Origin: a virus
Direction: 5' to 3' (one strand)
Virus record (IMG/VR): IMGVR_UViG_3300020156_000022
Location: 1-64,000 of that record
Length of the DNA: 64,000 nucleotides
The position numbers were made by a program, and so were the translations under genes. Below are positions 3,222-63,484 of the stretch, one piece after another. Within the stretch, counting starts at the first letter, position 1. Each line of letters starts with the position of its first letter. The notes beneath the pieces were generated by a model. It made no database searches and had not been told where the DNA came from. It worked only from the letters and a program-made list of their open reading frames with translations.

Positions 3222-3929
3222 TTACTTGGTTAGCTCACGGTGAGCATGGACAGCCATAGCTACCAATTCCTCTAGGGTGAGGGTCTGCTCATAGGTGTAA
3301 TTGGTACGTGCAAGCTTTACCGTAGCTCCGATGATGTCGGAGGTTGGCTTATCAGAAGCCATAGTTAGCTGCATAGAACGATAAATGTAATTGTAAGCTG
3401 AGTAATCAACATACCGAACATGCCCGTCTGTATCGATCTTACGAACACAACGACCATTACCAGCTGAGTCAATAAACTTACCAGCATAACTCTTATCAAT
3501 TTCGTTATAATTGTTTTGGTAGCAATAGGTGCCTACATATTCAGTAGAGAAACCGACTCCGGCTAGCATATTTGCAACCTGACGCTTTGCCGTAAGAACA
3601 GTTTCGCCAGTACAGACAAAGTCATCAACCAAAATCCAGCGCTTACCGATAGTGCCTCTGCCGAACTGCCCACAACTGTAGGAATCATGACTGCGCACAT
3701 CAGGCTTTCGCAGCGCAAGAAAAGGCACATCAAAATGACGGGCCAAAATTGGCAGGACCAATACACCAGACAGGCCAATTGCAACCATGCTGTCAAACTC
3801 AACACCAAGCCCCACCAGTTGAGTTTCCGCAGCAATACAAATCTTTTCCGCATCACCAAACGCTGCTTTGAAGTAGCCACCATCAACGGTGAAAAAATCT
3901 TTGGTCTTTGGGGAAGACGTAGTGGACAT
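3222..3929 (-). CDS. type I phosphoribosyltransferase-family protein
   Basis: PRPP-binding motif WILVDDFVCTGET; GLSG loop; LRK. Confidence 0.8.
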   Translation of the reverse strand: MSTTSSPKTKDFFTVDGGYFKAAFGDAEKICIAAETQLVGLGVEFDSMVAIGLSGVLVLPILARHFDVPFLALRKPDVRSHDSYSCGQFGRGTIGKRWILVDDFVCTGETVLTAKRQVANMLAGVGFSTEYVGTYCYQNNYNEIDKSYAGKFIDSAGNGRCVRKIDTDGHVRYVDYSAYNYIYRSMQLTMASDKPTSDIIGATVKLARTNYTYEQTLTLEELVAMAVHAHRELTK

Positions 3930-4543
3930 AGAGATTACCTTTCTGGGATCAACTTTGTTGTGGCTAGAGCCTATCAGACCTTCTCAACTACGTCAAGCTC
4001 GATTTAGTCCAGAGATTACCAAAACAAGAACTACGTATCCTACAGCAATAACTACCGCTCTGATAAATGCCCTCATTCCATGACCATACTTAAAGTAGTA
4101 TACATTGATGAAATAGTTAAGGAAGATCGATATAGCCGAACCAACAATAAGTCCTGTCAACATGGCTCCTACCTTAACAAAGTCATTCAAGCATGTCAAG
4201 CTCGCTAGCGAAGAAACCTAGTTCATCTTTCTCTCCGTCTAGCACAACCACACAGAAACCGCCTCTACGGCTTTTTAAGCGTCCCTTACGGCCTCGCCAC
4301 ATGTCACCCCCACCATGGAAAGATCTTGGGTTAGAGATGACTACAGCAGCACCACGGACTAGCTTAGATCGATCGGTCATCCTGCTTTGCTCCCGATAAC
4401 AGAGATCCACACTTTTACAATAGCAACAATAAGGCACAAAACAATAATGGGTATGAGATAGACAACCAACCTTAGCACACTAGGCACTAATGAAAGTATC
4501 CATCCCATACCCATTAAAGGTACCAGAAGGTACGGTTTCCGCA

Positions 4544-37933: not shown

Positions 37934-39553
37934 TCAGATTCGACCTGCTGAGAAGTCAGCGATCACTGACGGAGCGTTGGTGTCGAAACCTGCAACATTC
38001 AGGGTGCCGTTCACATCGTTAGGGTCGCCTACAGTAAACGGAGTAGCTGCCGCACCTACAACTACCAGCTTGGCGTCAATACCCATCTTCTGACGATAAT
38101 CCTTCAATGCACGCTCAGGCTTAATACGTCCAGCCCAAGTTTCGTTGTCGGTGTAAATCTGGAAGGTGTCAACTTCAATCTTGTTCTGCAATGCCCAAAC
38201 CATAGGCTGAGCAATATCAGTACCACCAAATGCCTGACCCTGCAACTTGCGGTTAACAGTAGCCAGATCCATCTTAGCAGTAATACCAAGATCACGGAAG
38301 GAAGTTGAGAAGCCCATGATCTGATACCAAGGCTCAACACGAGCAGTAACCATAGCCATAGCAGCAGTCACCTGTGCACAGCTTAGATCAATACCCAGTG
38401 CCGCAGAACCCATAGAACCAGAAACATCCAGAGCAAGCAAGGTTCGCTTGTTAGCAGGAGTAATGGACTTGAATGCAGCGTGGAATCCAGCATCCAAAGC
38501 ATCAGCAATTACAGGATTAGTTACCCAGTCCTTCTTACGAGTAATTGCATACCAACCATAAGACTCATTACGCTGCATCTGGCCCTCAGTATGAGTAACC
38601 AGAGCTAGAAGATACTGGATTGGGTGAAGACGAGTCTTCGCAATCATGTCAGAATCAACTAGAGCATTAGCAACTGCACGGGTAAACACCATATCGTTGA
38701 ATGCGCCAATACGAGAAAGGCGAGTAATCTGACGAACAAGTGCCTGACCCTTAAGCTGACCGTTAGCGAAAAGCTGCTTCCAAACCTCAGGCTCCTTAAG
38801 GAACTGAGTAGGAATAGTCTCCCAAGGAAGGTTAGTGAAACGCCCCAGAATATCGATAGCCTCAACAGAAGAAGAAGCAAGCTGCATCTTCTGAAAACCA
38901 TCGATAATGTCAGAATCGCCGTCTAGATCAATAAAGACAGGCTTACCAAGGATAAAATTACCTACACGTTGATCAACGCCAGTAGGGTGAGACAGGCGCA
39001 TAAGGTCACGCATAGTCCAACCATCACGCTGACGGTATTTAACAGCCTGGTACGCAAGCTGGTCAGCAGTCTTAGACTCAAACCACTTAGAGATTGCACG
39101 ACGCTTTGCACGACCCCAACCTCCAAGACCTTCGATGAAGGCAGCAAGCTGGTAAACGTGAGTAGCGATACGAGCAACCCTAGGAGCAGCCTCAACTACG
39201 GCCTGCTTAATACCCTGAACAGCCTCAGGCTCAGAAAGCATAAGAGCTAGGACGAAAATAGCAGCCTCGTTACGGTAGGCACGCCCCTTGTCGGACACGT
39301 CAATAACAGTAGCGAGAACAGTCTTAGGGTCCTTAGCGATCATCTTACGGATGAAGTCGACGTTCTGCTTAGTAAGATCCTTCTCACCCACGTAGTAGGT
39401 GCCCTTATCGGTACCAAGAATAAGGAAACGCTCAAGGCGCTGAATGTCAGATACTTCGAAAACGTAACCACCAGCGTTGTTCTTCACCTCATCGGAACGA
39501 GACTTCTCACGCTGAGTAGGTACAGCAGTAGAAAAATTCTTTAGTGCAGACAT
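37934..39553 (-). CDS. rsr: Ro60/Rsr TROVE-vWA RNA-binding protein
   Basis: NNAGGYVF, RFLILG..GTYY, GWGRAKRRA, KYRQRDGW..RDL.RLSHP, RLHP, vWA MIDAS LALDVSGSM, GGTD, YTDNETW; start MSALKN. Confidence 0.96.
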   Translation of the reverse strand: MSALKNFSTAVPTQREKSRSDEVKNNAGGYVFEVSDIQRLERFLILGTDKGTYYVGEKDLTKQNVDFIRKMIAKDPKTVLATVIDVSDKGRAYRNEAAIFVLALMLSEPEAVQGIKQAVVEAAPRVARIATHVYQLAAFIEGLGGWGRAKRRAISKWFESKTADQLAYQAVKYRQRDGWTMRDLMRLSHPTGVDQRVGNFILGKPVFIDLDGDSDIIDGFQKMQLASSSVEAIDILGRFTNLPWETIPTQFLKEPEVWKQLFANGQLKGQALVRQITRLSRIGAFNDMVFTRAVANALVDSDMIAKTRLHPIQYLLALVTHTEGQMQRNESYGWYAITRKKDWVTNPVIADALDAGFHAAFKSITPANKRTLLALDVSGSMGSAALGIDLSCAQVTAAMAMVTARVEPWYQIMGFSTSFRDLGITAKMDLATVNRKLQGQAFGGTDIAQPMVWALQNKIEVDTFQIYTDNETWAGRIKPERALKDYRQKMGIDAKLVVVGAAATPFTVGDPNDVNGTLNVAGFDTNAPSVIADFSAGRI

Positions 39554-39575: not shown

Positions 39576-39693
39576 GAACGAATATGTATGGATGATTGGG
39601 GTGCCCTACCATTTTGGGCGTCTGGTTGATCTGCGTACAGCCTACCAGACAGGGATCGAACCTGCAAGATAACCAATCAAGATCGACTCGTTC
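39576..39693 (-). ncRNA. Y RNA 1 (YrlA-like, permuted tRNA-like domain)
   Basis: GAACGA-GUCGA..UGAUUGG-UUAUC, T-arm GCAGG-UUCGAUC-CCUGU, CUGGU/ACCAG, D-arm GCCC..UGGUA-GGGC, CCAAUCA..CAUAU-UCGUUC. Confidence 0.85.
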
Positions 39694-39702
39694 AGAGTCA
39701 AG

Positions 39703-39830
39703 TGTTTCTGACAGGGTATGAACCTGCACATTTGTACTTCTTCAAAGATACTCCCCATAGCTAAGCTATAAGTTTCACTTCCGTACAAACCACCGAGGTT
39801 TCTCGGCTGCTATACTTTGCATACAGAAAC
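39703..39830 (-). ncRNA. enlarged tRNA-like spacer
   Basis: GUUUCUG/CAGAAAC-A acceptor, D-like arm, extra CCGAG/CUCGG hairpin, branched UUUGUAC/GUACAAA arm, T-arm. Confidence 0.65.
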
Positions 39831-39833
39831 AAG

Positions 39834-39957
39834 TGCGGCGAAAAAAGGATTCGAACCTCTTCAGTGAGATGAGCTTAGCACGTCTAGTCCATGTTCGTCA
39901 ACATGCTAAAAACGTGCAGCCTATGACACTCATCCTAGTCTCATAAACCAAAGCCGC
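39834..39957 (-). ncRNA. tRNA-like spacer with long rod insert
   Basis: GCGGC/GCCGC-A, GAGG-UUCGAAU-CCUU, nested GAUGAG/CUCAUC, GCACGU/ACGUGC, CAUGUU/AACAUG. Confidence 0.55.
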
Positions 39958-39963
39958 AAGTAA

Positions 39964-40123
39964 TTGATGAATATGGGAGCGTAAACGAATAATATACAGA
40001 CGCTCTGCCATTGAGCTATACCCCGTTCATCTATATAGCGTTGTTTGCGCTAGTCGGGGCAGGAGGATTCGAACACTCCAACATTCTGTTTCCTCAGATA
40101 ATCGTATTACTTCGACTCATCAA
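39964..40123 (-). ncRNA. Y RNA 2 (YrlA-like)
   Basis: UUGAUGA-GUCGA..ACGA-UUAUC, T-loop GUUCGAAUC, CCCCG/CGGGG, D-arm GCUC-AAUGGCA-GAGC, CAUAU-UCAUCAA. Confidence 0.85.
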
Positions 40124-40125
40124 AG

Positions 40126-40182
40126 TGTCCCCGGTTGGATTCGAACCAAACTTACACTACCAGGCGCTAACTGGCAAGGGAC
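40126..40182 (-). ncRNA. minimal D-armless tRNA-like spacer
   Basis: GUCCC/GGGAC-A, GCCAG/CUGGU hairpin, UUGG-UUCGAAU-CCAA. Confidence 0.6.
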
Positions 40183-40189
40183 TATAATT

Positions 40190-40357
40190 TTACTTTCTAG
40201 GCTTAGGCCAGCGATCAATTACTACCCTAAGATTTTCACATTCCTTCATTGCAGCATCAAAAGCTTTAGTATCTTTAGCTTCTCTCGCTTTTGCTAACTT
40301 TTCTCGTGCTTGCTGTAAAGCCTCTTGAGCTTCTCGTTTACTAGAATAGCTAGCCAA
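40190..40357 (-). CDS. 55 aa basic helical protein inside the Y-RNA array
   Basis: GAGG RBS, TTG start, MASYSSKREAQEALQQAREKLAKAR... Confidence 0.6.
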   Translation of the reverse strand: MASYSSKREAQEALQQAREKLAKAREAKDTKAFDAAMKECENLRVVIDRWPKPRK

Positions 40358-40366
40358 GGTTACCTC

Positions 40367-40522
40367 TCAGAATAGATTAGCTACAGTTTGAGCGTTGTTA
40401 ACTTCCTTCTGAAGTTGTGCAATAGTAGCTGCGTCAGCCTTGTTCTTTTTAGCTGCTTTTAGTGCAGCCTTAGCCTCTGCAAGTTTCTGAAATGCTTCGT
40501 GGCTGCTTGTAATCTTAGCCAA
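40367..40522 (-). CDS. 51 aa basic helical protein inside the Y-RNA array
   Basis: GGAG RBS, TTG start, MAKITSSHEAFQKLAEAKAALKAAK... Confidence 0.6.
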   Translation of the reverse strand: MAKITSSHEAFQKLAEAKAALKAAKKNKADAATIAQLQKEVNNAQTVANLF

Positions 40523-40558
40523 TTTAAATCTCCACAAGATTAGTAATTAATTAATAGA

Positions 40559-40691
40559 AGTGAACATGTAAGTGAAAAACGGGTTTTTAAGTGCTGCCAT
40601 TACACCACCCGCCCATGAAATGGACGAGCTGGGATTCGAACCCAGACCTTTCCTTTATAAGAGAAGATAACCGTTATTCGTTCGGCTCACT
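40559..40691 (-). ncRNA. Y RNA 3 (YrlA-like)
   Basis: AGUGA-GCCGA..AACGG-UUAUC, T-arm CUGGG-UUCGAAU-CCCAG, CUCGUCC/GGGCGGG, D-arm, CAUGU-UCACU. Confidence 0.85.
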
Positions 40692-40694
40692 AAG

Positions 40695-40771
40695 ATCTCC
40701 TGGCAGGACTCGAACCTGCATGAGGGGTGGCACTAATCCTCGCCAACGTCTACCAATTCCGCCACAGGAGA
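40695..40771 (-). ncRNA. degenerate Leu-like tRNA spacer with non-canonical anticodon arm
   Basis: UCUCCUG/CAGGAGA, Leu-type D-arm GGCGGAAUUGGUAGACG, perfect T-arm; no clean 7-nt loop. Confidence 0.6.
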
Positions 40772-40778
40772 AAATTAC

Positions 40779-40844
40779 TTCGAATATGTGTTGATGATGG
40801 TTATTTTTATTTTCAGTAAGATAAACCAACATCTCCGACTCGAA
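40779..40844 (-). ncRNA. Y RNA 4 (minimal, A-rich loop)
   Basis: UUCGA-GUCGG..UGGU-UUAUC..A-rich loop..ACCA..CAUAU-UCGAA. Confidence 0.75.
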
Positions 40845-40847
40845 TTG

Positions 40848-40921
40848 TGTTTCTGGCAGGAATCGAACCTGCTACCTTCGCTGTATATATTACGCTGCTC
40901 AATCCAATGAGCTACAGAAAC
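40848..40921 (-). ncRNA. tRNA-like spacer with collapsed anticodon loop
   Basis: GUUUCUG/CAGAAAC-A, good D- and T-arms, irregular GCGUA-AUAUA-UACAGC arm. Confidence 0.65.
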
Positions 40922-40927
40922 ATATAA

Positions 40928-41014
40928 TCAGGATATAATTTAGACATCGGAAAGCCCAGACAACGCTGAGCGAATTCACCATTTGAAAGATAACCGATGA
41001 TCCTTCGACCCTGA
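40928..41014 (-). ncRNA. Y RNA 5
   Basis: UCAGG-GUCGA..CAUCGG-UUAUC...CCGAUG..UAUAU-CCUGA. Confidence 0.75.
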
Positions 41015-41020
41015 AACTTG

Positions 41021-41112
41021 AAGTTGAACATGTGTTTGAGATCAAACTATGCCACTATGGGCAATTAATTTTGGAGTAATTATCTGATAATCGATCTCAT
41101 TCGGCTCAACTT
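41021..41112 (-). ncRNA. Y RNA 6
   Basis: AAGUUGA-GCCGA..GAGAUCGA-UUAUC...UUGAUCUC..CAUGU-UCAACUU. Confidence 0.8.
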
Positions 41113-41113
41113 G

Positions 41114-41189
41114 TACTCCGTACCGGATTTGAACCGGTGCTCTTCTGATTGAGAATCAGATGTCTTAGACCAGACTAGACGAACGGAGC
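41114..41189 (-). tRNA. tRNA-Glu(CTC)
   Basis: TCTGA-TTCTCAA-TCAGA. Confidence 0.9.
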
Positions 41190-41221
41190 ATGTCTGTAAG
41201 CACTAGCTGCTTACAGGTATT

Positions 41222-41250
41222 ACCTTACACTACCTTCAGGCTGTTGTCAA
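41222..41250 (-). promoter_or_regulatory. promoter of the tRNA-Glu / Y-RNA array / Ro60 transcript
   Basis: TTGACA-N17-TAAGGT. Confidence 0.8.
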
Positions 41251-41683
41251 CCGCATCATAAAAAGATCGACTATCTCCGTACAGATATGCATCAACAATT
41301 CGAGGCACAGTAAAAAAAGTATTGGCAGGAAGGGCATTCATATTAAACCAACGCCATTCTTCACACTTATCAGGTTCCATTACCTTAGGGTTGCCTGAAA
41401 GCCATATGCATACCATGCCAATATCAACATAATGCTTAGGCATGTATTCAGTCAGATTAATAGTGGAAATAGGGATAGGCCGAGTAGTCTTTACCTGAGA
41501 GCCAATTTCTTCTGCCATCTCACGGTAAGCTGTATCAGCAAACGACTCACCATACTCAAGTGTTCCTCCTGGAAGACCCCATTGCCCTGCACCATGAGAA
41601 CCCTTACGCTTACCTAGCAGGATAAGCTCCGGCATTCTTACTACAAGAACACCAATACCTACCTTGGTAATATTAGACATCAA
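41225..41683 (-). CDS. NUDIX hydrolase
   Basis: Nudix box GGTLEYGESFADTAYREMAEEIG; RKGSHG; EPDKCEEWRWF. Confidence 0.92.
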   Translation of the reverse strand: MMSNITKVGIGVLVVRMPELILLGKRKGSHGAGQWGLPGGTLEYGESFADTAYREMAEEIGSQVKTTRPIPISTINLTEYMPKHYVDIGMVCIWLSGNPKVMEPDKCEEWRWFNMNALPANTFFTVPRIVDAYLYGDSRSFYDAVDNSLKVV

Positions 41684-42487
41684 ACTCTCCGGCCTTTACA
41701 CCTTTAATAAATTCACGCCATTCGCGTTTATCAAAGCATACATAGTCTCCGTCAGAATCTCTGACAAAAACAACATCAGCTTCTATCAGAACTTCTACAC
41801 AGCAATCATTACCACAAAAAGAGGATTTCTTATGCTCAGGCATTATTTTTCTTTTCGAAAGATATTCTTAGGGCGATCTTGCCCTTTCTTAGTGCCACAA
41901 TTCCAGCACTTTTTCTCTTCTTCTCGTACCTCAGTATGGCAATATTTACATCGCCAGTGATTAAACGTATTCACGTACCATCAGCTCCACAAAGGTTACA
42001 AGTTAATTGGGTACCGTTAGAATTCCAGGTATTCAGTTTATGCTCGCACATTACAGTCCAATAAGCACAAGCATCACATTCTTCAACCTGGATTGAACCC
42101 AGCCAGTTCTCCATATAAAAAACGGAGGCTGAAAAACCTCCGTGCTCATCATGTTCCTTCAGATAGGACATTTACTTAATACCTAGTTCCTTCAGAATAA
42201 GGTCATGCTCTACTGCATGGAATACATGCTCAGGAATCTTAACTCGATAGACCATCTTTTCGAATTCGTAGCTAATACTCATCTCTAATTCTTGATGCAT
42301 ACCATCGCTATCGAGAAAAGCATTAGCTGCTTGGAGACGCTTAGTAATTTCGGGCAAAGCTTCAGAACGAACTTTTACCCATCGACCCTTATAAGTTCTG
42401 TCAAAAATGCCGAAGCCATTAGTGAATAACCCTATAACTAGGATAATTCCTAAGACTACTATTAGGGTTTCTAACCAATCAGACATG

Positions 42488-60895: not shown

Positions 60896-63484
60896 CTAGA
60901 ACGCAATATCTGCCGTCAGCCTTTGGAATTGCTCAGGAGTCATGCCAGAAAATTCATACTGCACTATGGCCCCTCCTAAAGCCATAGAAATTATGTTTCT
61001 ATGCTTCTCAGCATCTAGCTTAGTATCAGTCTGTGGCATCAACAATTCCCCCTCCGGAGTCTGGAGAAGAACATTCCTGGAGCCGCCTGAGAGCTTGTCT
61101 AGCAATTTATTGAAATTAACCCACTGTTCTTCTGTAGGCATGTGATCAATAATTACAACAACTCTTTCAGCTTGCTGCTTAGGACCGCAACCCTCAGGGT
61201 CTTCTAGATAAGCTTTTTCTTTTAGCTTCTTATCAATTTCTGCTGTAGAAGTGAACTTCTCTGCCTCAGATCCAAGTGTAGGTAAGTATATATTCCTAGG
61301 AGTATGGGCTACAGTCTCATCTACTTCTTCAGGAGTTGGAGGTTCCATTACAGTACCTTCAGAGATTCTGTTTGCTGGTTCATCTTCAAGTGTAGGTAAG
61401 TATATATCTCCTGGAGTAAGTACAGGACCATCTTCTACTTGGATAGCTCCATCTTCAAGAAGCTTAATCTCCTTAACTGATCCCCAACGCTTTCCTACAT
61501 GCCAATCAGCTTTCATCATAGGCCACCCCGGTACTGGAAAGATTACCGCAGGTTGAAGAACACGAATAACGTCAGCTGGATTAAGGCTGCGATGCACATA
61601 AAACTCCAGTGCATCGTGGACATTCATGAACAGCCTTACTTTATCTTTCCAACCCATTTTACGAATAGCCTTACGAGCACGAACCATTCCAATTCTGACG
61701 TAATCACCAGTAGCTCCACCTTGTACAGGATAGTTGAAGCAAGCTCTTTCTCCGCCTTCACGAATCCAACGGCGAGAATCGGTAAGTTCCCAAATAGGAA
61801 TCATACGACCAAATTTGGTAACTACATGTCCGTGCTGATAGCCGAATTCAACCTGCTTTTCGGTAAATCGCTTAAGCTTAGGAAAAGCAGCAAAATATTG
61901 ATTGAACAGATCTTCTGCCTCTTCTCTGGAGACATTAAGTCTTTTACCCAAAGCAATAGGAGTCATACCGAACAAAAGGCCGAAACCAATAGTCTTAGCC
62001 TTGGATCGATATTCTTTTGTTACTTGATCTTTAGATAGCTTGAACATCATCATAGCTACCTTGGTGTGAACATCCTCATCGTTTTCGAATGCTTCGATGA
62101 GTGCTGTCTCATTTGCCAATCCTGCGGCTGCTCGATATTCAGCCTGAGACAGGTCAAATCCTAGAATATAGTAATCATCAGGTGCGATTACCGCGTCACG
62201 GAAATTCAATTTATAGCTGGTGCCGTCTGCCAACTTGTAGTAATAACTCAGCGGAGTCTTACCATCATCATCTTTCAGGTTTACTGATGGCTGATTTTGC
62301 TGGTTAGGATTAGCGGAACTGAATCGAGCAGTGCGCACATAACTTTGGTTCAATGAAGGATGCACCATACCATCCGGAGCATATCCGTAATCCTTGGCAT
62401 ATTTATCCAAGAAAGATGTAGTCAGTCGCTTCATGTTCTTATAGTTGGAAATCTTCTTAACTACAGGATTCTTTTCTGCCAAAATATCCAGAGCCATCTT
62501 CCCAGTAGACATTTTTTTGTCTTCCTTGGCGGCACCCTTAGTACTTGTGGTATAGACATTTACCGTCAGACCCAGACGCTCGAACAGGATCTCAGATAGC
62601 TGTTTAGGGCTCCCCAGATTAATGTTGAGCTTAGTTCCTGGCATGCCTAGTAGTTCGGCTAGCTCAGACTGAATTTCGTCATTTAATTTGGCTGTAAACT
62701 CCTTGGCTCGATCAGACGCCTCCTGCATGAAAAACCAGTCATAGCGGATGCCGCAGTCCTCCATATCACAAATGACATAGACAACTTCCATATCCACTTT
62801 ATAAACTAGTTGATCTTTCACTTTAGGGTACTGATCAAGATGTAAAGCTAAACACCATAGGGCGTCTTCACATGCATACGTTACTACCTTTGAACTGAGA
62901 TCTAGTACATTAAATCGAAAAGCCTTTTTCTTCTTCTCAGTAAGGTGCTCGAACAGTTCTTCGAACTTAATCATCTTGTGTCCGAATTTGTTCAGTACCA
63001 GATCCTTTAGACCAAAATCCTGAAACTCTCGGGTGATATAAGCTTCTACCTGAGTATCTGACCTGGCAGGAAAATACCCGCTAGATTCTCGAACGTCTTT
63101 TCCAAAAATAGGATGATCTGATAATATCTCACGAAAAAACCGTGCCATGCGTCTAAGTTCGAAACCTAAATTGTGCGCAACGATCAATCCTGATTGGAAT
63201 GACTTCCAGAGAATTTCTGCGATAGCTAGATGATCAGTAAGATTTTCAGCAAAGTCATGAGCCATAGGAACATACCTTGCCCAATTAAGAGAATTGGTAA
63301 AACTGAAACCTACTAACAGATTTGTTTCTAGCTTTAGTGATCCTCGATCATCATCTTCTCCATGATACCCTGTTTCAATATCAAAGCCGATAGGCAGACC
63401 CTTATCGATCATGCCTGCCCAGAATTTTTCTAATTCCTCTACAGATCTTACAATGTCGTAGTTTTTAGTTACTACAGTTGACAT
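60896..63484 (-). CDS. polA: family A DNA polymerase with 3'-5' exonuclease and C-terminal extension
   Basis: FDIET, AHN, YACEDA; RFSSANPNQQN, DLSQAEYR, RSKAKTIGFGLLFG, NYPVQG, VHDAL. Confidence 0.95.
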   Translation of the reverse strand: MSTVVTKNYDIVRSVEELEKFWAGMIDKGLPIGFDIETGYHGEDDDRGSLKLETNLLVGFSFTNSLNWARYVPMAHDFAENLTDHLAIAEILWKSFQSGLIVAHNLGFELRRMARFFREILSDHPIFGKDVRESSGYFPARSDTQVEAYITREFQDFGLKDLVLNKFGHKMIKFEELFEHLTEKKKKAFRFNVLDLSSKVVTYACEDALWCLALHLDQYPKVKDQLVYKVDMEVVYVICDMEDCGIRYDWFFMQEASDRAKEFTAKLNDEIQSELAELLGMPGTKLNINLGSPKQLSEILFERLGLTVNVYTTSTKGAAKEDKKMSTGKMALDILAEKNPVVKKISNYKNMKRLTTSFLDKYAKDYGYAPDGMVHPSLNQSYVRTARFSSANPNQQNQPSVNLKDDDGKTPLSYYYKLADGTSYKLNFRDAVIAPDDYYILGFDLSQAEYRAAAGLANETALIEAFENDEDVHTKVAMMMFKLSKDQVTKEYRSKAKTIGFGLLFGMTPIALGKRLNVSREEAEDLFNQYFAAFPKLKRFTEKQVEFGYQHGHVVTKFGRMIPIWELTDSRRWIREGGERACFNYPVQGGATGDYVRIGMVRARKAIRKMGWKDKVRLFMNVHDALEFYVHRSLNPADVIRVLQPAVIFPVPGWPMMKADWHVGKRWGSVKEIKLLEDGAIQVEDGPVLTPGDIYLPTLEDEPANRISEGTVMEPPTPEEVDETVAHTPRNIYLPTLGSEAEKFTSTAEIDKKLKEKAYLEDPEGCGPKQQAERVVVIIDHMPTEEQWVNFNKLLDKLSGGSRNVLLQTPEGELLMPQTDTKLDAEKHRNIISMALGGAIVQYEFSGMTPEQFQRLTADIAF
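61270..61407. repeat. two further copies of the 15.3-16.1 kb repeat inside the polymerase ORF
   Basis: 61270-61299 identical over 30 nt to 15535-15564; 61388-61407 matches 20 nt of the core. Confidence 0.95.

Follow-up and report, generated by a model that had tools for sequence, protein, structure and literature searches.

The DNA analysed here, the first 64 kb (the window) of the 104,982-bp IMG/VR virus record IMGVR_UViG_3300020156_000022, which is estimated to be 77% complete, encodes the ring protein Ro60 (Rsr) and, upstream of it on the same strand, six elements that combine one common base-paired handle with six different inserts. Judging from sequence, we think it probable that these six are genuine Ro60 partner RNAs, that is, paralogous Y RNAs, and that they would be made from a transcript punctuated by tRNAs. 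The particle is of a known kind with an unusually large RNA set, and the notion that multiple Y RNAs serve as adaptors is itself not new, having already been proposed in general terms (PMC4201824).

The Ro60 gene and the six elements

The gene and the elements upstream of it, named Y1 to Y6 in order of their distance from the Ro60 start, are as follows.

37934–39553, minus strand: Ro60/Rsr gene, full-length, 539 amino acids, ATG at 39553
39576–39693, minus strand: Y1, YrlA-type, handle with T-arm, closed acceptor-like stem and D-arm, 23 nt before the Ro60 start
39964–40123, minus strand: Y2, long YrlA-type with a 7-bp acceptor-like stem (descriptor match, fold)
40559–40691, minus strand: Y3, YrlA-type with V hairpin, T-arm, tetraloop-sealed acceptor stem and D-arm
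40779–40844, minus strand: Y4, short plain hairpin, handle and a 17-nt A/U-rich loop
40928–41014, minus strand: Y5, non-tRNA insert with one GC-rich hairpin (descriptor match; fold z −2.4)
41021–41112, minus strand: Y6, non-tRNA insert with two small hairpins (fold z −3.7)

The gene at 37934–39553 is a real Ro60, as a first-pass annotation made from the letters of the window had proposed. Its open reading frame (ORF) matches the Pfam TROVE domain (E = 1.4e-34) and vWA_Ro60 (E = 3.3e-59), aligns over its full length with Deinococcus radiodurans Rsr (PDB 2NVO; E = 3.5e-104) and also matches Xenopus Ro60 (PDB 1YVP; E = 3.7e-82). The protein thus has the TROVE HEAT-repeat ring and the vWA domain with a MIDAS expected of a Ro60/TROVE protein, the MIDAS motif DVSGS being retained, and its N-terminus, MSAL, is also present in a relative. 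Among deposited phages the nearest Ro60 proteins are those of Streptomyces phages of the Stanwilliamsviridae (53–58% identity), followed by those of Mycobacterium, Gordonia and Microbacterium phages (36–40%).

A shared handle confined to the array

The six elements span 39576–41112, 23–1560 nt upstream of Ro60 and on its strand. The first-pass annotation had placed them at 39576, 39964, 40559, 40779, 40928 and 41021; all six stand, these positions being the 3' ends of elements read from the minus strand. Each is built, in order, from the 5' strand of a terminal stem (S1), G(U/C)CG(A/G), the 5' strand of an inner stem (S2), UUAUC, a variable insert, the 3' strand of S2, a short spacer, (C/U)AU(A/G)U and the 3' strand of S1. 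S1 comprises 5–7 bp in each element, and S2, as found by duplex folding, comprises 7–10 bp directly below UUAUC and has a different sequence in all six, in keeping with the earlier remark that the stems differ in sequence yet pair. UUAUC is present in every element, 10–11 nt after GYCGR, and all six fold as closed hairpins (z −2.0 to −3.7 relative to dinucleotide-shuffled sequences). A U.U mismatch or bulged U lies 4–5 bp below UUAUC in S2 of Y2, Y3, Y4 and Y5, of module Yb of L001, the nearest relative, and of module B5 of Streptomyces phage Belfort, and may have been conserved for recognition.

Searching for GYCGR-N(7-14)-T[TA]ATC gives six matches in the 1.5 kb of the array strand and only seven in the other 126 kb, both strands counted. 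A strict descriptor, which adds to this pattern perfect S1 pairing, the covarying Y–R pair described below, AURY and an S2 duplex, gives seven matches in the 105-kb genome, against 0.69 in whole-genome Markov shuffles; these are the six elements and one weak match within the Ro60 ORF (38843–38928), which we dismissed as chance. A relaxed descriptor, from which UUAUC and the AU of the 3' motif were omitted, returned mostly noise and was dropped.

Covariance models pick out the same elements. The model R1, built from three short elements (Y4 and its counterparts in two other phages), independently detected Y5 (E = 0.11) and Y6 (E = 0.05); it was overfitted to the loop and failed on the long elements, which was remedied by iterating to R2 and R3. 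R2 was rebuilt from five short elements only, so that Y1–Y3 were unseen in training, and across 83 kb, both strands included, it recovered Y1 (E = 2e-4), Y2 (E = 8.6e-3) and Y3 (E = 9.2e-3); the next match in the window, at 62332–62383 (E = 1.2), was dismissed as chance. The final model, R3, finds exactly six matches in the whole 105-kb record, and the other tRNA clusters therefore contain no stray copy.

Covariation of the handle helices

Between the two stems, the G(U/C)CG(A/G) and (C/U)AU(A/G)U motifs pair as a bulged helix with the geometry G.U, Y–R, unpaired C, G.U, which parallels the bulged-C helix of animal Y RNAs. As read from the alignments, both handle helices covary strongly. A plain MAFFT alignment (A3) was made of 16 elements (the six of the window, four from its nearest relative and six from Belfort), which are paralogs and orthologs and hence not independent samples. 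In it, 96.9% of the cells of S1 and the bulged helix are paired, against 24–56% in slid-register controls, and 34 cells are double changes, against 11.7 ± 3.4 after shuffling, a count that none of 500 shuffles reached. MAFFT aligned both ends of the whole elements well but not the 3' strand of S2, and S2 was hence assessed by duplex folding and in a second alignment, A9. For S1 and S2 together, A9 gives 91.3% paired cells (slid-register controls, 32–46%) and 74 double-change cells (shuffled, 23 ± 4; again 0 of 500 shuffles reach it), counts that are biased towards structure by the fitting of A9 to the model.

The Y–R pair of the bulged helix is the clearest single case. The first-pass annotation had noted AUAU opposite GUCG in four copies and AUGU opposite GCCG in two; this is correct, and it extends without exception to the 16 elements from three phages (U–A in 11, C–G in five). 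Among 53 non-redundant modules drawn from many loci, in which the 3' partner was placed by S1 complementarity alone, the correctly closed ones have U–A in 28 cases and C–G in 12.

The inserts and the likeness to YrlA

The hallmarks of YrlA RNAs are GNCGAAN0-1G near the 5' end, a YUAY that opens the V loop, T, acceptor-like (AS) and D stem-loops, and a location less than 4 kb from Ro60 on the same strand (Chen et al., 2014; PMC4201824). All six elements lie within about 4 kb of Ro60 on its strand and carry the YUAY feature as UUAUC, and GNCGAA is exact in Y2, Y3, Y5 and Y6. The permuted tRNA-like domain is confined to Y1, Y2 and Y3, whose inserts have a T-arm (GGUUCGAnnCC), a closed acceptor-like stem and a D-arm with GG in the YrlA layout; Y4–Y6 lack it and are therefore not YrlA in the strict sense. 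Rfam alignments, RNAalifold and individual folds thus bear out the earlier division into three permuted tRNA-like and three unrelated inserts.

Some of these inserts can be traced in other phages. Y1 has an ortholog at 3846–3979 of L001 in which S1 is identical and S2 is different, while Y2 is without counterpart in the two nearest relatives. When Y3 was folded jointly with module Yc of L001 and module B6 of Belfort by RNAalifold, 18 of 38 pairs showed compensatory changes, with support for S1, S2, the T-arm, an 8-bp acceptor stem with a short sealing loop (the tetraloop in Y3) and the D-arm. Y4 has orthologs in L001 (3014–3077) and in Belfort (L010, 2563–2629); set against the YrlB/Yrn2 type, a long hairpin that has the Ro60 motif and a small pyrimidine-rich loop, it is a plain hairpin that bears the motif, though with an A/U-rich loop of 17 nt. 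Y6 and module Ya of L001 both carry AAAAUUAAUU.

Several results weigh against reading the six as Y RNAs, the bias of A9 and the relatedness of the aligned elements among them. Rfam at its gathering thresholds reports tRNAs only. The likeness of Y1–Y3 to YrlA that the first-pass annotation had pointed out survives as alignment, end to end for Y1 (29.8 bits, E = 1.3e-3), at 21.0 bits for Y2 and over the tRNA-like core for Y3 (18.2 bits), but not as family membership, since none of the six reaches the YrlA cut-off of 69 bits. Neither Y5 nor Y6 matches any Rfam family even at E ≤ 10, and at that level the animal Y_RNA family (RF00019) likewise gave no match. Y1 (GUCGAU) and Y4 (GUCGGA) are each one base off GNCGAA. 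Finally, neither PNPase nor RtcB nor a CCA-adding enzyme was found in the phage record (77% complete), and any partner enzyme or effector must therefore be supplied by the host. The identification as Y RNAs, which the first-pass annotation had made, nevertheless gains support from GNCGAA, YUAY, the T/AS/D module in three elements, the linkage to Ro60 and the covarying handle helices.

Arrays in related phages

The first-pass annotation had also suggested looking for the handle in related phages, and it proved to be a consistent companion of Ro60 there. In 17 other Ro60 loci, all 51 of 51 R3 matches are on the Ro60 strand, and in 15 IMG/VR loci all 45 of 45 strict-descriptor matches are upstream of Ro60 and on its strand. 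From this linkage we conclude that the module is a specific companion of Ro60.

Its copy number varies. The two nearest relatives of the window, whose Ro60 proteins are 71–76% identical to that of the window, have four modules each, the counterparts of Y1, Y3, Y4 and Y6, so that Y2 and Y5 are extra in the window. Six modules are found in Streptomyces phage Belfort (MW365952), five each in Streptomyces phages Blueeyedbeauty (NC_048720) and Faust (NC_070783) and in IMG/VR loci L024 and L031, and four, as counted by the descriptor alone, in IMG/VR locus L033. Smaller sets occur in Gordonia phage GMA2 (three), mycobacteriophage Catera (two to three), Coruscant and BearBQ (two each) and Mildred21 (one). 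At the other extreme, a 55-kb IMG/VR contig (L029) whose Ro60 is 38% identical has about seven back-to-back modules in 950 nt (3540–4470), immediately upstream of Ro60. Arrays of four to seven are therefore recurrent in this Ro60 clade, and the window is at the high end without being unique; its array size had been put forward as new, which overstated the case. The GenBank records examined do not label any of these modules as a Y RNA. The handle of the L029 modules is a variant (GAGCCGG ... UUACGCC), a hint that from lineage to lineage the handle changes together with Ro60. Belfort-type phages have GUCGG as their standard form, and the Y3 and Y4 types are still conserved where Ro60 identity has fallen to 57%.

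Three R3 modules overlap tRNAs annotated in GenBank, namely tRNA-Ser(tga) in Mildred21 (L011, 2610–2724), tRNA-His(gtg) in Blueeyedbeauty (L012, 2908–3047) and tRNA-Arg(tct) in Microbacterium phage Magritte (L017, 3428–3555); these tRNAs may be mis-called YrlA-like domains or tRNA–Y chimeras. In a metagenome relative (L034, 1–816), an HNH-endonuclease-like ORF lies between Ro60 and the last Y module, which is cut by the contig end.

This variation in number bears on whether all six elements are in use. Only some of them might be working Ro60 partners, the rest being recent duplicates or decaying copies, in which case the size of the array would reflect duplication and turnover rather than a toolkit. 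The four modules of the two nearest relatives, which lack orthologs of Y2 and Y5, the range from one to about seven copies among Ro60 phages, and the departure of Y1 and Y4 from GNCGAA all fit such a view. Yet both helices, the covarying Y–R pair and UUAUC are kept in all six; the six inserts are all different, so these are not recent near-identical duplicates; and the GUCGG that sets Y4 apart from GNCGAA is normal in Belfort-type phages. We regard partial redundancy as unlikely, and prefer to treat all six as Ro60 partner RNAs.

Layout of the array and proposed release of the RNAs

The remaining features of the array are a tRNA, five tRNA-like spacers (X1–X5) and two small ORFs.

41113–41189, minus strand: tRNA-Glu(CUC), heads the array (Rfam 64.6 bits; ARAGORN)
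40847–40921, minus strand: X1, tRNA-like with a defective anticodon arm (Rfam tRNA 44.2 bits; ARAGORN 4-base anticodon; fold)
40694–40771, minus strand: X2, tRNA-Leu-like with an 8-nt anticodon loop (ARAGORN tRNA-???; no Rfam tRNA match; fold)
40367–40537 and 40190–40357, minus strand: two small Lys/Ala-rich ORFs, about 51 and 55 amino acids, helical, inside the array between Y3 and X3
40125–40182, minus strand: X3, 57-nt mini tRNA-like unit with acceptor stem, D-like arm and T-arm and no anticodon arm, directly 5' of Y2
39833–39957, minus strand: X4, tRNA-like unit of about 124 nt with a GCGGC/GCCGC acceptor stem, T-arm and long insert
39702–39830, minus strand: X5, tRNA-like unit of about 128 nt with a 7-bp acceptor stem, T-arm and long insert and no anticodon arm (sequence reading and RNAfold)

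From 5' to 3' on the minus strand, the order is tRNA-Glu, Y6, Y5, X1, Y4, X2, Y3, the two ORFs, X3, Y2, X4, X5, Y1 and Ro60. The packing is tight. Y6 begins at the base after C74 of tRNA-Glu, and the further spacings are 6 nt (Y5–X1), 2 nt (X1–Y4), 7 nt (Y4–X2), 2 nt (X2–Y3), 1–3 nt (X3–Y2), 6 nt (Y2–X4), 2 nt (X4–X5), 8 nt (X5–Y1) and 23 nt (Y1–Ro60). Five Y RNAs accordingly start 0–8 nt past the 3' end of a tRNA or tRNA-like unit, and three stop 6–7 nt ahead of one. Similar Y–tRNA–Y packing recurs in L001, Belfort and Blueeyedbeauty, a tRNA-Glu(CUC) also heads the arrays of L001 and L036, and X4 is conserved at 3716–3836 of L001. The two small ORFs, too, are conserved in L001 (3339–3497 and 3506–3688); they have no informative Pfam or PHROG match, and a link to the Y RNAs is possible.

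In the five spacers the acceptor stems and T-arms are intact, while the anticodon arm is defective, has an 8-nt loop, is absent or is replaced by a long insert; X5 was not called a tRNA by either ARAGORN or Rfam. The tRNA and tRNA-like units at 41113, 40847, 40694, 40125, 39833 and 39702 encode the discriminator and one C only, not CCA. A terminator scan of the array found no convincing intrinsic terminator between tRNA-Glu and Ro60, and a scan for sigma-70 promoters was uninformative, shuffled sequence having more sites than the real one.

Most likely, one long transcript would carry tRNA-Glu, the six Y RNAs, the five tRNA-like spacers and the Ro60 mRNA, from which host tRNA-processing enzymes would excise the Y RNAs, with RNase P cutting at the 5' ends of the tRNA-like units and tRNA 3'-end maturation acting at their 3' ends. 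Such release is plausible because of the spacings just given, and it has a precedent in Mycobacterium smegmatis, where a single precursor gives rise to YrlA and YrlB and where RNase P accepts YrlA as a substrate (PMC4201824). The spacers X1–X5 may be merely RNase P/Z processing signals, or they may be decoys.

The same layout can be read in two other ways. In the first, the hairpins would be cis-acting structures for processing, stability or insulation of a tRNA operon or the Ro60 leader, with Y1 possibly an autoregulatory Ro60 site. That the elements sit among tRNA and tRNA-like units at spacings of 0–8 nt, and that Y1 ends 23 nt before the Ro60 start with no terminator between, is what one would expect of such structures. 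Against them, the phage has 28 tRNA or tRNA-like genes, spread over 32 kb between 20 and 52 kb of the window (ARAGORN, Rfam), yet no module lies outside the 1.5 kb beside Ro60; the handle bears the Ro60-recognition motif; and three of the inserts are complete YrlA-type domains. Moreover, in bacteria YrlA and YrlB also share a transcript upstream of rsr and nevertheless act as separate RNAs (PMC4201824). We find a purely cis-acting role very improbable. In the second, Y1–Y3 and X1–X5 would be mainly tRNA decoys directed, for example, at host anticodon nucleases or tRNA-modifying enzymes, independently of Ro60. The sealed or permuted acceptor stems, the five adjoining tRNA-like units with their defective anticodon arms and the heavy investment of the phage in tRNAs are all compatible with decoys, but this would leave unexplained the shared Ro60-type handle, the elements Y4–Y6 and the strict linkage to Ro60 across lineages, and we give it scarcely any credence. 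Ro60 partner RNAs released by tRNA processing remain the reading that we favour.

Comparison with known Y RNA systems

In the vertebrates, Y RNA paralogs (Y1, Y3, Y4 and Y5 in humans) have a common Ro60-binding bulged helix and differing loop domains, and human Y1 and Y4 read GGUCCGA, then about 10 nt, then GUUAUC. The array of the window has the same plan of paralogs with one, here putative, Ro60-binding bulged helix and different loop domains, and its covarying helix is analogous to the animal bulged-C helix GGUCCGA/UUGACU, yet the animal family model does not match it. Animal Y RNAs also differ in being separate Pol III genes with La-binding U tails rather than parts of a tRNA-punctuated operon. 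In Deinococcus radiodurans, the Y RNA Yrn1 tethers the Rsr ring to the exoribonuclease PNPase in the complex RYPER, and a second RNA, Yrn2, is also known. There, as in the window, several small RNAs lie upstream of rsr and beside a tRNA, but the phage record has no PNPase.

By homology, Ro60 would dock at the handle, that is, at the terminal stem, the G-Y-[C]-G-R/A-U-R-U bulged helix, the inner stem and UUAUC. This docking handle would correspond to the GNCGAA and YUAY of YrlA and to the animal GGUCCGA; the YrlA motif GNCGAAN0-1G has itself been likened to the GGUCCGA contacted by Xenopus Ro60 (PMC4201824).

A close parallel is bacterial and mycobacteriophage Rsr with YrlA and YrlB (Salmonella Typhimurium, M. 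smegmatis; RF02553; PMC4201824), with which the array shares upstream RNAs on the same strand, GNCGAA, YUAY, and the combination of one class that has a permuted tRNA-like domain (T, AS, D and an optional V) with another that is a plain hairpin. The YrlA/YrlB RNAs are co-transcribed and processed, as those of the window would be. Unlike these two-RNA systems, the window has six RNAs and three further insert types, all below the Rfam threshold, a handle with a covarying Y–R pair and a fixed (C/U)AURU 3' motif, and an array interleaved with tRNA and tRNA-like units. Two Y RNAs each have been described in Salmonella, M. smegmatis and D. radiodurans (PMC4201824).

Among phages, phiLo, which infects Thermus, has a Ro60 to which both host PNPase and two Y-like RNAs of the phage bind (PMC12135203, 2025). 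Its Yrl1 and Yrl2, found through the CGAA motif and a stem-bulge-stem shape, are encoded just upstream of a phage Ro60 as in the window; phiLo differs in having two RNAs, no reported tRNA-like modules or tRNA punctuation, and binding that has been shown. A Listeria phage has three highly transcribed candidate regions for which Y RNAs are one possible reading (PMC12282133). In the literature searched (supplementary per-phage YrlA lists were not covered), no set larger than two or three RNAs has been described next to the Ro60 of a bacterium or phage. Close equivalents are the unannotated arrays of Belfort, Blueeyedbeauty and Faust (Stanwilliamsviridae/Loccivirinae), which have the handle, Y–tRNA–Y packing, a Ro60 that is 53–58% identical and 5–6 modules including orthologs of Y3 and Y4. 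They differ in their handle variant, GGGUCGG, and in their DNA polymerase, since the best match of the window's polymerase is not theirs but Magritte's.

Possible roles of several Y RNAs

If the handle is what Ro60 grips, the inserts would offer different surfaces to other factors, three of them sealed permuted tRNA look-alikes and three unrelated. Speculatively, one Ro60 ring could then form several distinct particles, for instance with host PNPase as in Deinococcus, Salmonella and phiLo. That the six Y RNAs are functionally specialised adaptors is possible but, in our view, less likely than not. The fuller picture is similarly doubtful: a panel of at least six distinct Y RNAs might redirect one Ro60 ring to several host partners or substrates, possibly PNPase, tRNA-handling enzymes and RNA-targeting defence nucleases, with the spacers acting as processing signals and the Y3 and Y4 classes kept since before the split from the Streptomyces Loccivirinae phages. 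The first-pass proposal that each Y RNA recruits Ro60 to a different effector, or decoys a defence system, is pure conjecture.

Why one Ro60 protein has several Y RNAs is an open question from bacteria to humans, for which a compact phage operon is a tractable system, and arrays nearly equivalent to this one are carried by Streptomyces phages that are in culture and open to genetic work (such as Belfort, Comrade, Gilson, Blueeyedbeauty and Faust). The handle is also of use in annotation, as these Y RNAs escape the Rfam YrlA model and are detected specifically by R3.

Genomic setting

The genes of the window are almost all on the minus strand. A megablast search of the locus against phages gave no match, and the phage DNA polymerase is only 38% identical to its best match, that of Microbacterium phage Magritte. 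Because of this low identity, and because the nearest Ro60 proteins are those of Streptomyces phages, the phage represents a distinct lineage, probably of actinobacterial phages. Directly upstream of the array, a NUDIX hydrolase gene (41225–41683, minus strand) could bear on RNA 5'-end chemistry or processing, and a 9-bp hairpin without a U-tract lies between this gene and tRNA-Glu (41193–41217, minus strand). A DUF397-like small protein is encoded at 41673–41843, which is consistent with the guess of an actinobacterial host.

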